A DNA stretch of 17,615 bases from Erysipelotrichaceae bacterium (GCA_016302195.1 JAEDOA010000017.1:1-17615); one strand, 5' to 3'; counted from the first letter of the stretch, positions 279 to 10,686 are shown. Numbers and translations are program-made. Notes: generated from the letters alone by a model not told the origin.

Positions 279-310
279 GGCGAGGTTGAAAAACCTCGCC
301 TTTATTTTTT
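279..310 (+). terminator. rho-independent terminator
   Basis: 9-bp GC-rich stem GGCGAGGTT/AACCTCGCC with a GAAA loop, followed by TTTATTTTTT, immediately after the stop of the upstream CDS. Confidence 0.7.
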
Positions 311-329
311 ATAAAAATTATGTTATAAT
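301..329 (+). promoter_or_regulatory. conserved phage promoter, copy 1 (-35 TTTATT, 17-bp spacer, extended -10 TGtTATAAT)
   Basis: TTTATT-TTTTATAAAAATTATGT-TATAAT. Member of a 7-copy near-identical family in this window. Located 44 bp upstream of the RBS/ATG at 373. Confidence 0.6.
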
Positions 330-372
330 AATTTATAGAAAATGAAAAGAGATTTCAAAGGAGAATCAATAA

Positions 373-690
373 ATGAATTCCGTAATTAAAGATATTCTTA
401 AAAGAAAAGTAAATATAGAGGATAAGTGTAATGCTCTTAACTCGATTGAAAAAGATATTGAAATTGCAAAAAAAATCCTTTCTGGAGAGATGATTTACTG
501 TGAAAATTGTGATGATTATTTTTTAGCTCGTTCATTTTTCCAAGACACTGAGACTAAGAAAGAATCTGTATGTACATATTCTGACCCTATTAACAGCGGC
601 GGCAATGAATATGCAGATAGAGATGTGCTTTATACTTATCTAATATGTCCAAAAGGGCATAAACACTTAATTGACAGAAAGGAATTATAA
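373..690 (+). CDS. hypothetical protein, Cys-containing (CxxC ... CPKGH), possible zinc ribbon
   Basis: RBS AAAGGAG 7 nt before the ATG. 105-aa ORF following promoter copy 1. No recognisable family. Confidence 0.55.
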   Translation: MNSVIKDILKRKVNIEDKCNALNSIEKDIEIAKKILSGEMIYCENCDDYFLARSFFQDTETKKESVCTYSDPINSGGNEYADRDVLYTYLICPKGHKHLIDRKEL

Positions 691-759
691 AATATAAAAA
701 TGTATATACCTTTTGGAGATTGGTCTGATGATGGACATTGAAAATATAATAAAGTTTTA

Positions 760-800
760 AGCCTGGGAAATATAAACATTTTCCAGGCTATATTTTTATT
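760..800 (+). terminator. rho-independent terminator
   Basis: 10-bp stem GCCTGGGAAA/TTTTCCAGGC (one G:U) with an 8-nt loop, followed by TATATTTTTATTT. Confidence 0.6.
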
Positions 801-801
801 T

Positions 802-830
802 ATTGATTTTTTATAAAAATTATATTATAA
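802..830 (+). promoter_or_regulatory. conserved phage promoter, copy 2 (-35 TTGATT, 17-bp spacer, -10 TATAAT)
   Basis: TTGATT-TTTTATAAAAATTATAT-TATAAT followed by ATATATATATG. Confidence 0.65.
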
Positions 831-865
831 TATATATATGAAAAATAAAGAAAAGAGGTATATTT

Positions 866-1189
866 ATGATGAATGATTACATTGAAATGAGAATTAAAAA
901 AGGTGGAGAAATAGTAAGAATTTACAACATTGGTATTTCCGCAGAAGGAAGAAAAAGTTTCGCAACAATATGGCGTCCATCTCAAAATAGATTTGAAACA
1001 ATAGAAATGAAAAATTTAGTTCCTCTGGATTATTCTTTTGAAGATGGTTCTGTTGCTTCAAAATCAGAAAAAAATAAAATTAAAGAAAAATTAACTTTAA
1101 GCCATGCAGAGTGGACTTGTACAGACGGAACAGTATTTAATAACTGTAATGATGCTATTGAGCATCAAAGAAAATTACTTTTACTTTAA
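866..1189 (+). CDS. hypothetical protein (107 aa)
   Basis: RBS AAGAGG upstream of the ATG, directly downstream of promoter copy 2. No recognisable family. Confidence 0.55.
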   Translation: MMNDYIEMRIKKGGEIVRIYNIGISAEGRKSFATIWRPSQNRFETIEMKNLVPLDYSFEDGSVASKSEKNKIKEKLTLSHAEWTCTDGTVFNNCNDAIEHQRKLLLL

Positions 1190-1242
1190 AAAAGGTTGTT
1201 AGATAAAATGTCAGTACATGATGATTGGAAGGTTGTAAAATA

Positions 1243-8434: not shown

Positions 8435-8608
8435 ATGAAAAATGTTGGGGCAACAAAAATGCACATTAAAGAAATTCACAAGAAACCTCATTCAGAACCA
8501 AAGAGAGTAAGAAAGAAAGTTGAAACAAAACAAAAGACAAAGAAAATTGGTTTTATTGAATTATTATTGCACTTATTTTTAGGATTGGAGATTGATAATA
8601 ATGAGTAA
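8435..8608 (+). CDS. possible small basic protein (57 aa, Lys-rich), not in the supplied ORF track
   Basis: ATG at 8435 with AAGAGG 8 nt upstream, directly downstream of promoter copy 5. Translation: MKNVGATKMHIKEIHKKPHSEPKRVRKKVETKQKTKKIGFIELLLHLFLGLEIDNNE. Confidence 0.3.
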   Translation: MKNVGATKMHIKEIHKKPHSEPKRVRKKVETKQKTKKIGFIELLLHLFLGLEIDNNE

Positions 8609-8825
8609 AAATCCATTATATGCCAATGAAATAGCAACAGCATATCAGTTTGTTATTGCACACAATACTGATATAAAGTTACAAAATTTTTTACATGATA
8701 TGAGATTTAGAAAAGATTTAATGCATAGCGATAGATGGTCTTTATGCTATGACTTTTTAAAGGAGAATTATCCTGCGGCGACCGACTCAATCGTCACTGG
8801 ACTAGCTTATTATTTGGAGGACTAG
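8601..8825 (+). CDS. hypothetical protein (74 aa)
   Basis: ATG at 8601 with GGAG 10 nt upstream. The track ORF start at 8592 is TTG. Confidence 0.45.
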   Translation: MSKNPLYANEIATAYQFVIAHNTDIKLQNFLHDMRFRKDLMHSDRWSLCYDFLKENYPAATDSIVTGLAYYLED

Positions 8826-8828
8826 ACT

Positions 8829-9014
8829 ATGGGAGAAATTATCGGAATTCCGCCATCAGAATGGGAATATGAGTTCATGGTTGTTAAACCTCGTGAAGAT
8901 GGTAATTTTGATTGGGTAGCAAATTATGAAAATTATCCCGTAAAAATAGAAGATGGATGTGTAATTACTCATAATATAAGAATTGCTCATAAGCAATTGA
9001 AGAAGAATATTTGA
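8829..9014 (+). CDS. hypothetical protein (61 aa)
   Basis: RBS GGAGGA 8 nt upstream of the ATG. The stop overlaps the -35 of promoter copy 6. Confidence 0.45.
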   Translation: MGEIIGIPPSEWEYEFMVVKPREDGNFDWVANYENYPVKIEDGCVITHNIRIAHKQLKKNI

Positions 9015-9039
9015 TTTTTTATAAAAAATATATTATAAT
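9011..9039 (+). promoter_or_regulatory. conserved phage promoter, copy 6, driving the RNA ligase gene
   Basis: TTGATT-TTTTATAAAAAATATAT-TATAAT. Confidence 0.65.
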
Positions 9040-9071
9040 ATTTATATAAAAAGAAAGGAAGTATAAAGAAT

Positions 9072-10310
9072 ATGTTAAACAAACAGGGTACGAGAGAGCT
9101 AGCTTATGTAGTAAAAATAGACAGTATAGAGCCAATACCTGGAAGAGATAGGGTTGAATGTGCTAAAGTTGGCGGCTGGACGATTATGGTTCGCAAGGAC
9201 CAGTTCAAGCCTGGTGACCTGGGTATCTACTTTGAGATTGACTCTAAAGTACCTGCAAAGGAGCCTTTTATGTTCCTTGAGGGTAAGCATTTTAAGATTA
9301 AGACACAAAAGTACAAGACTCCAAATGGTCAGTTCTGGTCACAGGGTTTGCTTATGGCAGCTTCTGATTTTGGCTGGATATATACTGGAGAAGATTTTGT
9401 AACAAATGATAATAAAGTTTTTAGGCTAGGGGATTTCCTTACAAAAGAGCTTGGGATTACATATGCAGACCCTGAAGATAATTCTCGTAAGTCTAAGTCT
9501 TCAGTAGATAAGTATCAGAAGATGGCTCAGAGAATGGGTAAGAAGTTCGCTAAGCAGCCATACAGATGGCTTATGAAGAGAATCTGGGGTAAGAAGTTAC
9601 TTTTCTTCTTCTATGGTGAAAAGAAGGATACTAAGGCGTGGCCTGAGTGGGTAGTAAAGACAGACGAAGAGAGAGTTCAGAATATGCCTTGGATTCTTGA
9701 GGATAAGTCTGAGTGGTTTGCTACTGAGAAGATTGATGGTACTTCAACAACTTTTACAATGAAGGGTTGGGGAAGAAAAAGAGAGTTCTTTATCTGCTCA
9801 AGAAACGTATGTTTCAATACACCTGAGAAGATGGAGGCTGGTGCTTGGTATGACACTAATGTATATCAGGAGATGGGCATTAAGTATAACATTGAGAATG
9901 TACTTGCTACACTTATGGAATACTTTAATAAAATCGGCACTGGCGCAGTTGATTTCGTAACACTTCAGGGTGAAACATATGGTGCTGGTATTCAGAAGAG
10001 AGATTACTCACTTACTGACCACGACTTTATGGCTTTCAATGTAATTATTAAGTATGAGGGTGAGGCTCCTCGTAGATTAAATCCAAGAGAAATGACAGAT
10101 TTACTTGCGGATTATGGAGTACCTTGTGTACCAATCGTAGACGAGCATTTTGTAATGCCAGATACTGTTGATGAATTACTTGCAATTGCAACTGATGCAT
10201 CTAAAGTGGATGGCGGCATGCGTGAAGGACTTGTATTCAGGAGTGTAGATGGTGCAAAGTCATTTAAGGCTGTTTCAAATGAGTTCTTAATGAAGTATCA
10301 TAACGGTTAA
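9072..10310 (+). CDS. ATP-dependent RNA ligase (nucleotidyltransferase superfamily), with an N-terminal OB-like domain (DraRnl/NgrRnl/Rnl5-like architecture)
   Basis: RBS AAAGGAAG. Motif I 'ATEKIDGTSTTF' (KxDG with the lysine adenylylation site) at about residue 220. Downstream 'LQGETYGAG', 'REGLVFRSVDGAKSFKAVS' (motif IV/V-like EGxVxK ...K.K). The N-terminal ~100 aa 'VVKIDSIEPIPGRDRVECAKVGGWTIMVRKDQFKPGDLGIYFEIDS' resembles the extra N-domain of bacterial/phage RNA ligases. Confidence 0.7.
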   Translation: MLNKQGTRELAYVVKIDSIEPIPGRDRVECAKVGGWTIMVRKDQFKPGDLGIYFEIDSKVPAKEPFMFLEGKHFKIKTQKYKTPNGQFWSQGLLMAASDFGWIYTGEDFVTNDNKVFRLGDFLTKELGITYADPEDNSRKSKSSVDKYQKMAQRMGKKFAKQPYRWLMKRIWGKKLLFFFYGEKKDTKAWPEWVVKTDEERVQNMPWILEDKSEWFATEKIDGTSTTFTMKGWGRKREFFICSRNVCFNTPEKMEAGAWYDTNVYQEMGIKYNIENVLATLMEYFNKIGTGAVDFVTLQGETYGAGIQKRDYSLTDHDFMAFNVIIKYEGEAPRRLNPREMTDLLADYGVPCVPIVDEHFVMPDTVDELLAIATDASKVDGGMREGLVFRSVDGAKSFKAVSNEFLMKYHNG

Positions 10311-10403
10311 AATTATATGGTTTCCTAAGATGCCATAGTGTAGGTTGTAATAGGCGGGCTACTATAATATCCCTTCCATATAATCAATTATAAAAGGAGC
10401 ATT

Positions 10404-10649
10404 ATGATAATGAAAAAAATGTATATTGCTATTAACACTATCAATAAAGCAGCTGAATTTGTACAGAAAGCATCTCAAGTAGATGGTGATGTAATATGTA
10501 CTAAAGGTCGATATACTATTGATGGTAAATCAATTATGGGTATTTTTTCGATTGATATTTCAGAAGGTATAATAGTAGAATATCCAGAAACAGCTACCGA
10601 CTTTGAAGAGTATCTATCTCAGTTCAAAGTAAACAAAGTGGGGTTATAA
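10404..10649 (+). CDS. HPr-family phosphocarrier-like protein lacking the catalytic His15 but retaining the Ser46 region (Crh-like)
   Basis: RBS AAAGGAG. It aligns collinearly with HPr: 'VQKASQVDGDV' against 'VQTASKYDADV', and 'DGKSIMGIFSIDISEG' against 'NLKSIMGVMSLGIAKG'. The 'GIHARPA' active-site segment is 'TINKAAE' here (His to Asn, Arg to Ala). Confidence 0.55.
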   Translation: MIMKKMYIAINTINKAAEFVQKASQVDGDVICTKGRYTIDGKSIMGIFSIDISEGIIVEYPETATDFEEYLSQFKVNKVGL

Positions 10650-10657
10650 TACCCTGC

Positions 10658-10686
10658 TTTATTTTTTATAAAAATTATGATATAAT
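10658..10686 (+). promoter_or_regulatory. conserved phage promoter, copy 7, driving the kinase/phosphoesterase operon
   Basis: TTTATT-TTTTATAAAAATTATGA-TATAAT followed by TTATATATAAG. Confidence 0.65.

Follow-up and report, generated by a model that had tools for sequence, protein, structure and literature searches.

Near-identical repeats in a probable lytic-phage sequence are likely to be promoters read by the host housekeeping RNA polymerase

The early promoters of phage T5, such as PN25, belong to the near-consensus housekeeping-sigma class and are grouped with the early promoters of T4. The latter carry additional consensus beyond the sigma-70 elements, which has been read as optimised binding of the host polymerase, allowing the phage to outcompete the promoters of its host (PMC2988021). 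In T4-like phages, PeSL elements combine a strong sigma-70-like early promoter with a terminator stem-loop and occur in many repeats (PMC2839356, PMC4122927), while SPO1, a large Firmicutes phage, has a host-takeover module with a cluster of numerous small early genes, their functions unknown, that are served by the host sigma-A holoenzyme before phage factors (PMC10531801, PMC13401047). The preferences of RNA polymerase itself have also been described: four spacer regions, a TRTG in Firmicutes, an AT/AG-rich discriminator, an AG-rich leader and, as a general preference, a YRY/YRR start centred 7 bp past the -10 (PMC12641261).

Our analysis concerns a window of 17,615 nt, that is, the whole stretch of DNA under study. 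A 23-mer (TTTTATAAAAATTATGATATAAT, at most three mismatches) matches it seven times, always on the plus strand (307, 809, 3956, 4873, 8374, 9017 and 10664), against a mean of 0.01 matches in dinucleotide shuffles, which never reach seven. This confirms the seven near-identical copies reported in a preliminary description of the sequence; pairwise identity of the seven 29-mers is 79-97% (mean 89%). Counted from the -35, these co-oriented elements, of the form TT(G/T)ATT-TTTTATAAAAATTATGA-TATAAT, start at 301, 803, 3950, 4867, 8368, 9011 and 10658 (Table 1). Six of these positions had been given correctly, and the second copy lies at 803 instead of 802. The sigma-70-like appearance noted earlier also stands: the -10 is an exact TATAAT in all seven, as it is at 15881 and 12678, the spacer is always exactly 17 bp, and the -35 (TTGATT four times, TTTATT three times) is close to TTGACA. 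TATG precedes the -10 in five copies, including all three with TTTATT, and both copies that lack it have TTGATT. The alternating TA run said to follow the TATAAT is present in five copies; 301 has AATTTATAG at this place and 3950 has ATTGCGG. The conserved unit measures about 41 bp and not 29, as conservation reaches about 12 nt beyond the -10. From an abrupt 5′ edge at the -35 it runs through the spacer (in the order T-tract, low-information centre, A-tract, TRTG), an AT-rich discriminator and a putative start site, TA(T/G), and on into a leader rich in purines. The T-A-(T/G) occupies the 6th to 8th nt past the -10, which fits, at the level of sequence, a start about 7 nt downstream. Scanning the window with the family matrix returns the seven copies, 15881 and 12678 only, and shuffles give nothing. 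We propose, with a probability of roughly 0.8, that the repeats are very strong promoters read by the host housekeeping (sigma-A/sigma-70-type) RNA polymerase, no phage factor being required. The phage would most likely be large and lytic, with an AT-rich, Bacillota-like host, and the promoters would serve its early genes, an early timing that we infer solely from promoter type and gene content.

Table 1. Promoter elements and hairpins of the window
Feature	Coordinates	Strand	Elements	Score (bits)	Downstream genes	Surroundings
Promoter copy 1	301..341	+	TTTATT, 17-bp spacer with TATG, TATAAT at 324-329; predicted start about 336	27.9	ORF 373-690	-35 and T-tract double as U-tail of terminator 278-301
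Promoter copy 2	803..843	+	TTGATT, 17-bp spacer, TATAAT at 826-831, no TG	43.8	heads unit of ORF 866-1189, Thg1 and ORF 3752-3946	terminator 760-789 lies 14 nt 5′ of promoter
Promoter copy 3, orphan	3950..3990	+	-35, spacer and -10 intact; GC-rich sequence in place of family discriminator and leader	22.8 (lowest of seven)	no SD and no ORF 3′ of element	points at 3′ end of minus-strand homing-endonuclease gene 4011-4787
Promoter copy 4	4867..4907	+	TTGATT, spacer ending in TTTTGA, TATAAT	46.8	808-aa MVP-shoulder/SPFH gene 4950-7376	
Promoter copy 5	8368..8410	+	TTTATT, TATG spacer, TATAAT then (TA)7	29.3	three small ORFs, 8435-9014	
Promoter copy 6	9011..9051	+	TTGATT, TATAAT, no TG	44.8	RNA ligase 9072-10310 and HPr-like gene	TGA stop of ORF 8829-9014 inside TTGATT
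Promoter copy 7	10658..10698	+	TTTATT, TATG, TATAAT	37.5	ORFs 10736-12564 (Zn-finger protein, kinase, phosphoesterase)	
Promoter 12678	12678..12718	+	TTGACA-AATATATTTTTTTTTGG-TATAAT; 12/12 consensus	14.5	heads 12738-13169 / PIN-PhoH unit	
Promoter 15881 (family D2)	15881..15921	+	TTGACT-TTTCAAGAAAATTTTGT-TATAAT-TATTATATAGAT; 11/12 consensus	33.7	ORFs from 15970 onward	
Intrinsic-terminator hairpin	278..301	+				adjoins promoter copy 1
Intrinsic-terminator hairpin	760..789	+				5′ of promoter copy 2
Intrinsic-terminator hairpin	10635..10660	+				T-tail doubles as -35 and T-tract of copy 7
Terminator	15799..15822	+				3′ of endolysin gene
Hairpin, perfect 11-bp stem	4000..4025	unstranded				just 3′ of orphan copy 3

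Two further promoters had been described as lacking the conserved spacer. Both exist, one at 12678 and the other at 15881 rather than 15882. The spacer of 12678 is indeed unrelated, and its type is found elsewhere only at the orthologous site of the relative L053; 15881, on the contrary, scores above three of the seven copies and counts as an eighth family member, one that has diverged further. We take its spacer to be much like the A/T-tract spacer of T5 PN25 (TTGCTT-TCAGGAAAATTTTTCTG-TATAAT). The two temporal classes that had been deduced from this pair do not follow as argued, 15881 belonging to the family and the 12678 spacer recurring at a single orthologous site. Moreover, the two share the housekeeping-sigma type and hence say nothing about timing.

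The element block recurs throughout a clade of uncultured gut/rumen phages of ~140 kb. In a sample of 66 loci (867 kb), chosen solely by homology to the 808-aa protein, we counted 184 -35/-10 pairs spaced by 17 bp against 2-11 at 15, 16, 18 or 19 bp, shuffles giving about 10 hexamer pairs per spacer length, and 168 of the 184 point the same way as the gene. The spacer holds 8.6 bits in this sample and the 12 nt past the -10 hold 5.1 bits; loci found through the motif, with the triggering copies removed, yield the same result, so that the values span about 8.6-10.5 bits for the spacer and 5-5.7 bits past the -10. Conservation of the spacer far beyond the hexamers, as first noticed in the window, is hence also seen in samples chosen without the motif. 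A Shine-Dalgarno sequence and an ORF (40 aa or longer) follow within 150 nt of 75% of 262 related-locus elements (28% of random positions), with a median leader of 27 nt and a median first ORF of 116 aa, and for most first ORFs neither Pfam nor PHROG gives a match. The block persists among relatives with only 40-60% identity in their shared proteins, which indicates that it is under selection; it is also retained where the immediate upstream flanks are unalignable. Orthologous genes have the promoter in some relatives and not in others, a family promoter occupying the position equivalent to copy 4 in 26 of about 46 relatives. A search of bacterial genomes (596 Gb) with the 23-mer returned 78 isolated matches, mostly without a -35, and the AT-rich control phages Fnu1 and VRE9_2 have no spacer block (maxima of 25 and 22 bits).

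The preliminary description had suggested that such a spacer is recognised by an additional factor. The over-conserved positions are, however, those generally preferred by RNA polymerase, which makes an extra factor unnecessary: the order of spacer regions, the discriminator, the start and the Firmicutes AG-rich initial transcribed region of the general bacterial core promoter match the family logo position by position (PMC12641261). In host core promoters these are weak statistical preferences, whereas in the phage family they are nearly fixed, clade-wide, at about 8.6-10.5 bits in the spacer. This level, above that of usual host promoters, would suit a spacer block (T-tract, AT, A-tract) bound by a phage-encoded or virion-delivered protein with a dedicated regulon, which would boost the promoters or silence them at the early-to-middle switch. 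The consensus spacer is in fact a perfect 12-bp palindrome, TTTTTATAAAAA, with a roughly mirror-symmetric conservation profile; the block is clade-specific, being missing from the two control phages and the bacterial genomes, and takes slightly different dialects per genome; and T4 Alt offers a precedent for a phage factor acting on early promoters outside the sigma-70 elements (PMC2988021). We nevertheless think such a protein unlikely. Known properties of RNA polymerase account for every conserved sub-block (PMC12641261), the symmetry is lost in the variants TTTTCAAAAA and TTTTTGAAAA, and the complementarity expected of a dyad does not exceed what column composition predicts (3.65 of 6 mirror pairs against 3.56 +/- 0.06; z ~1.6). 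Furthermore, the tract adjacent to the -35 is T- or A-rich according to the last -35 base (T to TTT, A to AAA; p = 1e-12), pointing to a readout of DNA shape rather than of specific bases. No candidate protein was identified, and we know of no Alt-like modifier for this phage family. An operator for a dimeric phage repressor or activator appears unlikely for the same lack of selected dyad symmetry. Promoters of phage-encoded RNA polymerases (N4, phiKZ/AR9 type) have a consensus of their own without the host -35/-10 pair, unlike the canonical -35/17/-10 arrangement of these elements. The only nearby HTH-like ORF, 8128-8295 on the minus strand, adjoins a different palindrome (8323-8342). As to the UP element proposed as another requirement, the sequence immediately 5′ of the -35 carries practically no information: counted from the -35, each of positions -30 to -1 holds about 0-0.17 bits.

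It could also be argued that the similarity is mainly historical, one promoter having been recently duplicated or gene-converted within each genome with the spacer itself unselected. Promoters of the same genome differ at 9.1 of 29 positions against 10.4 between genomes, a difference that 0 of 500 permutations reach, and several identical 41-mers are present within some genomes. Yet this amounts to only about 1.3 of 29 positions, and dozens of phages with such diverged proteins, including the motif-independent sample, have the spacer pattern, also beside flanks that can no longer be aligned. Decay from a single ancestor would besides be uniform, whereas the information varies by position and is low in the centre; we hold this explanation to be very unlikely. 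Some observations do count against recognition by the host polymerase: the -35 is TTGATT or TTTATT and not TTGACA, T-17 and T-15 are conserved above G-14, contrary to the textbook TRTG order, the palindrome would suit a dimeric binding protein, the contrast within and between genomes could mean a genome-specific factor or gene conversion, and the copy at 3950 drives no gene.

Two of the seven window copies adjoin a hairpin, and a third hairpin lies 14 nt upstream. Across the clade, a GC-containing hairpin ends no more than about 10 nt from the -35 in 45 of 129 copies (35%, against 13% of random positions), an enriched but not invariable companion of the element, and TTTATT copies adjoin GC-rich hairpins. 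In copies with a terminator immediately before them, its U-tract merges into the promoter at the cost of the -35 G, giving TTTATT, and the TG of an extended -10 would compensate for this loss. TG accompanies a non-TTG -35 in 21 of 25 clade copies, compared with 53 of 104 for the others (p = 0.003). In the hairpin at 4000..4025, the minus-strand endonuclease gene has its stop codon in the loop.

The elements share with PeSL the many-fold repetition of a strong promoter, combined in part of the copies with a terminator stem-loop, and their place, mostly before small ORFs of unknown function in variable regions, with cassette differences between relatives ending at elements. They differ in that only about a third have an adjacent hairpin, always upstream of the -35 and never inside the promoter, in the lack of an AT-rich upstream block, in a conserved length of about 41 bp instead of ~100 bp, and in belonging to an unrelated phage clade. 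That the promoters also act as mobile, PeSL-like regulatory cassettes, homologous recombination between copies shuffling the genes they flank and exchange between terminator-promoter copies accounting for part of their uniformity, is a tentative idea that we find possible but lean against. Recombination hot-spots had been put forward earlier, and cassette boundaries, often at element edges, are compatible with such a possible role. Besides the hairpin enrichment and the T4-like precedent (PMC2839356, PMC4122927), the idea draws on the patchy presence at orthologous genes, on downstream ORFs mostly without known family, on cassette content that varies between relatives, and on the window pairs 301/803 and 3950/4867, each of which brackets one cassette. 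DNA homology between the window and its relatives begins exactly at the -35 edge at 4865 (L048), 9011 (L059) and 301 (several loci). The Thg1 cassette that distinguishes L154 from L155 has its right edge exactly at the -35, and in the close relative L148 the lysis cassette is swapped with a breakpoint at 15818, the stem/T-tail junction of terminator 15799..15822, 63 nt upstream of promoter 15881. Five of eight indel or replacement events between close relatives break within 20 nt of an element, compared with 0.8 expected under a uniform null, but an estimated 40% of intergenic DNA lies this close to one, so that the enrichment is largely gone if breakpoints are confined to intergenic DNA. Near-identical relatives differ by 11 clean indels, and not one of these has an element copy on both sides, the diagnostic signature of PeSL, which also form mini-circles (two adjoin a single element and two more lie within 52 nt of one). 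Similarity between copies also ends abruptly at the -35, whereas conversion tracts should reach into the flanking DNA, and for homologous recombination a substrate of 41 bp, about 80-90% identical, is short.

Recognition by the host polymerase would bring the family close to the T4 'uber' early promoters (UP/-35/TGn/-10): in both cases many near-identical, near-consensus housekeeping-sigma promoters stand before early genes, with a consensus outside the canonical elements that is common to many promoters of the phage. Unlike in T4, no UP element or A-tract is conserved 5′ of the -35, which is here a TTGAYT running into a T-tract; the extended -10 is of the Firmicutes TRTG type, and the host would be an AT-rich Gram-positive-like bacterium and not E. 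coli. The likeness to SPO1 concerns the gene cluster and sigma-A transcription; we saw neither SPO1-like sigma genes (gp28, gp33/34) nor terminal redundancy in the window and found no sequence relationship. In the proposed mechanism, the ~41-bp unit would act through its TTGAYT -35, exactly 17-bp spacer, perfect TATAAT and AT-rich discriminator, with a TA(T/G) start 7 nt past the -10 and a purine-rich leader of ~27 nt bearing a strong Shine-Dalgarno. Selection to maximise polymerase binding and the formation of open complexes would account for the excess conservation of the spacer, in which a general bacterial preference is optimised as it is in the early promoters of T4 and T5. The feature is real and of an ordinary kind, best read as early promoters for host sigma-A, and T4, T5 and SPO1 are among the phages in which such elements have been described before. 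The promoter block may have spread over the clade by descent and exchange, its copies heading short mono- or oligocistronic cassettes that are often closed by a terminator.

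Searching the window with the 23-mer TTTTATAAAAATTATGATATAAT, allowing up to three mismatches, yielded exactly seven sites, all on the + strand, where dinucleotide-preserving shuffles give a mean of 0.01. The seven-copy repeat reported in the preliminary description is therefore real. TATAAT and a 17-bp spacer are present in all seven copies, and pairwise identity of the 29-mers is 79-97% (mean 89%). The alternating TA run said to follow every -10 box is found in five copies and not in the other two; the starts previously placed at 802 and 15882 are each off by one, while the six other copy starts and 12678 agree. 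In an alignment of 129 unique copies, drawn from the window and from motif-carrying viral contigs, conservation sets in abruptly with the TTG of the -35 hexamer, with essentially zero information upstream, and continues for about 12 nt past TATAAT (ATATATA[G/T]AAA) before fading into a purine-rich leader. Because conservation spans this whole interval, the functional unit is about 41 bp long. The corresponding 41-nt weight matrix recovered only nine + strand sites in the window: the seven copies plus two more, 15881 with 33.7 bits and 12678 with 14.5 bits. Its sole minus-strand match is copy 6 read in reverse, and shuffled windows gave zero matches.

Positions of the repeated element, of the genes around it and of the cassette differences between related loci
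Feature	Position	Strand	Remark
Element starts (-35 hexamer)	301, 803, 3950, 4867, 8368, 9011, 10658	+	copies 1-7
23-mer sites	307, 809, 3956, 4873, 8374, 9017, 10664	+
Thg1-like guanylyltransferase	1828-2643
Homing endonuclease	4011-4787	-	free-standing
ATATAATA box	4807-4814	-
808-aa protein	4950-7376		major-vault-protein shoulder / SPFH (Band 7) domain
Homing endonuclease	7407-8135	-	free-standing
ATATAATA box	8314-8321	-
RNA ligase	9072-10310
HPr-like protein	10404-10649		PTS phosphocarrier
PHROG match	10736-11029		'ribosome associated inhibitor A; zinc finger domain'
AAA_33 kinase	11026-11544
Metallophosphoesterase	11748-12299
PIN-PhoH	13209-14459
Lysis region, holin-like + endolysin	14467-15822; L148 1-1700		swap breakpoint 15818
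Holin-like protein + CHAP endolysin	within 14511-15790
ATATAATA box	16729-16736	+
Homing endonuclease	16753-17343	+	free-standing
DUF5662 protein			in the window
Small ORF + Thg1 cassette	L154 8029-8054; L155 2449-3444		at element
Endonuclease-bearing insert	L163 19254-19285; L218 19273-20085		within 6 nt of element

Three data sets agree that the conservation of the spacer, noted earlier for the window copies, is real and unbiased. In motif-found loci anchored on the two hexamers only, and after removal of the copies that had triggered retrieval, the spacer holds about 10 bits over 169 promoters; 264 of 286 hexamer pairs in motif-found loci are 17 bp apart. We also assembled a homology-only sample of 66 loci (867 kb), chosen purely by match to the 808-aa protein and covering ±10 kb per clade contig. 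Here 184 hexamer pairs lie at 17 bp versus 2-11 at 15, 16, 18 or 19 bp, and shuffles give about 10 at every spacer length. Co-orientation with the gene is seen for 168 of these 184 pairs, and the spacer holds 8.6 bits, with a further 5.1 bits in the 12 nt after the -10. The pattern consists of T at positions 1-4, a low-information centre, A at 7-10, and then T-17, A-16, T-15 and G-14. Protein identity of the relatives to the window is only 40-60%, and where the promoter of the 808-aa gene has an orthologue, the block is kept next to sequence that, just upstream of the -35, cannot be aligned. This indicates purifying selection on the block, and not recent copying alone.

The block is confined in its distribution. 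A scan of 596 Gb of bacterial genomes with the 23-mer returned 78 matches, always single, and revealed no host; a -35-like hexamer is in place in only about 13 of roughly 85 near-matches, and a few matching MAG contigs, with the labels Clostridium, Bacilli or Acutalibacteraceae, are apparently phage sequences that were binned there. As AT-rich controls we used Fusobacterium phage Fnu1, which has 131 kb at 25% G+C, and Enterococcus phage VRE9_2, from which a 25-kb early-type region was scanned. Both carry ordinary TTGACA/TATAAT promoters that lack the conserved spacer block, with top matrix scores of 25 and 22 bits, respectively, versus 38-47 bits for the best four window copies. Given the isolated bacterial matches and these low scores, the block is a property of this phage clade, and we ruled out that it is a by-product of AT-richness or a general host promoter. 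A literature search with the sequence string returned nothing relevant. Of all details of the family, this spacer, specific to the clade and almost invariant, stands out most.

We consider the family to be promoters for the host sigma-A-type polymerase, with a probability of about 0.8. In related loci, 75% of 262 elements have, within the next 150 nt, a Shine-Dalgarno sequence together with an ORF no shorter than 40 aa, versus 28% of random positions (median leader 27 nt, median first ORF 116 aa), which, together with TATAAT and the 17-bp spacer throughout, upholds the original assignment to sigma70-type promoters. A recent study across 49 bacterial species described preferences for a thymine-rich tract beside the -35, then a region of low signal, another AT tract and a TG/TRTG region (TRTG being characteristic of Firmicutes). 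Further preferences are a discriminator rich in AT or AG in Terrabacteria, a 'start' element (YRY/YRR) whose centre lies 7 bp after the -10 and, in Firmicutes, AG-richness of the initial transcribed region; the study also showed experimentally that promoter strength can vary by orders of magnitude with spacer sequence (PMC12641261). The conserved sub-blocks of the family coincide with these preferences. Furthermore, the extended -10 TG is present in 21 of 25 copies without the -35 G versus 53 of 104 others (p = 0.003); in the window, TATG is found in each of the three TTTATT copies, and both copies without TG have TTGATT. When the last base of the -35 is T, a T-rich tract comes next in 126 of 134 cases, versus 22 A-rich and 20 T-rich tracts when it is A (p = 1e-12), suggesting readout of homopolymer-tract shape. 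Both internal dependencies point to the polymerase rather than to a separate sequence-specific protein. All observations fit promoters of the host housekeeping holoenzyme. We infer that the family is probably early and very strong. There is a documented precedent in phage, since T4 early promoters have a consensus beyond the canonical elements (PMC2988021). The family is similar in style to the early promoters of T4, T5 and SPO1, and its organisation resembles that of PeSLs (promoter-early stem-loops).

Copies with the TTTATT variant are directly preceded by a GC-rich 3′ hairpin arm, so that the run TTTATTTTTT is at once a terminator U-tail and the -35 plus T-tract. Over all variants, such a hairpin ends within about 10 nt of the -35 in 45 of 129 copies versus 13% at random positions. 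Promoters of this family are often fused to upstream terminators.

Other explanations had been put forward for the conserved spacer. An UP element or upstream curvature finds no support because no information lies upstream of the -35. The consensus includes the palindrome TTTTTATAAAAA, but mirror-position complementarity (3.65 versus 3.56 ± 0.06 from column frequencies) reveals no excess dyad symmetry, which led us to reject an operator; in variants such as TTTTCAAAAA and TTTTTGAAAA the symmetry is lost. With no dyad excess and with dependencies that fit the polymerase, an additional factor is unnecessary, although genome dialects leave room for one. Promoters within a genome are slightly more alike than those of different genomes (9.1 versus 10.4 differences over 29 non-hexamer positions, matched by 0 of 500 permutations), a difference that could stem from gene conversion, from tuning to particular hosts or from a factor particular to one genome. 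It is improbable that the spacer block doubles as the site for a clade-specific on/off switch protein, phage-encoded or injected with the virion, or, in a related reading, that these are the first PeSL-like mobile cassettes outside T4-like phages; under the first of these readings, a regulatory code specific to the phage would lie within a host-type promoter. Rfam and tRNA scans gave no meaningful match in or after the elements, which led us to reject a riboswitch or a structured leader RNA.

The idea that the elements are recombination hot-spots is compatible with the data but unproven. In the PeSLs of T4-like phages, an early promoter and a terminator make up one repeated element; these repeats delimit variable cassettes and recombine (PMC2839356, PMC4122927). 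In our case, DNA homology between the window and relatives starts exactly at the -35 edge, and among close relatives a breakpoint falls within 20 nt of an element in 5 of 8 replacement or indel events versus 0.8 expected under a uniform null, an enrichment that we down-weighted because an intergenic-only null would largely account for it. Two related loci that are 94-97% identical, L154 and L155, differ by a cassette of 994 nt that ends, on its right, at the first base of a -35, and L218 differs from L163 by an 811-nt insertion with a homing endonuclease 6 nt after an element (both pairs are 90-97% identical). The close relative L148, 97% identical to window 15818-17426, has an entirely different lysis cassette, the breakpoint lying at a terminator stem/T-tail junction 63 nt upstream of promoter 15881. 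On the other hand, none of 11 clean indels has two flanking element copies, and the resemblance among copies does not extend into their flanks. Clean insertions relative to near-identical genomes were also seen inside coding sequences and, in one case, inside a tRNA-like sequence with GGTTCGAGTCCC in its flanks (L187 20616-21680; L227 1563-2228; L213 5881-6370 and 12621-13874); these may be introns, inteins or mobile inserts.

Promoters 12678 and 15881 had been set apart as lacking the family spacer and as implying two temporal classes. For 15881 this was wrong, its matrix score being that of a diverged family member. The description holds for 12678, a perfect TTGACA/TGn/TATAAT promoter with the unrelated spacer AATATATTTTTTTTTGG, which occurs elsewhere only at the orthologous position in one related locus (L053). 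As this sole further example is orthologous, we rejected a '12678 class'; it is one conserved locus-specific promoter. Since both are of the housekeeping-sigma type, they carry no evidence for temporal classes. The lysis genes have no recognisable promoter and start directly after a hairpin (14467-14486). An Amidase_2 + SH3 endolysin cassette in L148 has the same terminator-then-RBS layout. This suggests that the lysis genes are expressed through regulated read-through and that terminators are where cassettes are exchanged.

In copy 3950 the -35, spacer and -10 are intact, but from 3 nt past the -10 the family discriminator and leader are lost, and neither a Shine-Dalgarno sequence nor an ORF lies downstream. 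Ahead of it are a very stable hairpin (4000-4025; -23.5 kcal/mol, z = -4) and the 3′ end of the minus-strand endonuclease gene 4011-4787. The hairpin has a perfect 11-bp palindromic stem with the endonuclease stop codon in its loop, and a U-tail on neither strand; the paralogous endonuclease gene likewise terminates within a bidirectional terminator (7395-7422). A related locus with the same flanking genes (L048) has no endonuclease at this site, and L218 carries an endonuclease insertion just behind such a promoter. Most likely, insertion of the endonuclease cassette stranded promoter 3950, and copy 4867 would now serve the 808-aa gene; an antisense function of 3950 over the endonuclease gene is possible.

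Two of the window endonucleases are paralogous (47% identical); both contain Cys-rich repeats, and their C-terminus is Vsr/PD-(D/E)xK-like (PHROG 374/559/9084). The third is of the GIY-YIG type (PHROG 314). Their number and position vary among relatives, one of which (L059) has three. All three window endonuclease transcription units have a ATATAATA box without a -35, 10-20 nt upstream of the Shine-Dalgarno sequence, versus only about 3 of 10 endonuclease genes in relatives. We treat it as a weak lead: it may be a different, perhaps late-type, promoter. A 55-aa HTH-like ORF (8128-8295, - strand) overlaps the start of the second endonuclease gene, and a perfect 20-bp palindrome, AAAATTGTCGCGACAATTTT (8323-8342), lies just upstream of it, between the ORF and promoter copy 5; the two may form a small autoregulated operon.

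The window has 30% G+C and nearly all its genes lie on the + strand. Megablast of the whole window against GenBank phages gave zero matches, and protein searches found only distant cultured relatives (29-45% identity), which leaves the window without an annotated reference. Of five window proteins looked up by exact match, only the DUF5662 protein led to a close relative, L148. The clade of the window phage is uncultured; its contigs, about 133-143 kb long, come from metagenomes of human-gut and rumen type. The 808-aa protein belongs to no PHROG family and has counterparts in gut/rumen phage contigs of about 140 kb (52-75% identity) and in uncultured phages of 462-735 kb (LR756500/LR756501; 37%). 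The Thg1-like, RNA ligase, AAA_33, metallophosphoesterase and PIN-PhoH genes form an RNA-repair-type set behind conserved promoters, resembling a tRNA-repair counter-defence module.

The element is a ready marker for annotating transcription units in one uncultured clade of human-gut and rumen phages of about 140 kb, and it marks the genes that are probably switched on first: small unknown proteins, the tRNA-repair-like set and the vault-like 808-aa protein. For an AT-rich Gram-positive-type polymerase, the family amounts to a saturation experiment on promoter spacers performed by nature, and bacteria of that type could probably be supplied from it with promoters that are compact and very strong. 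If the association with cassette boundaries is causal, PeSL-type modular shuffling would reach beyond T4-like phages.
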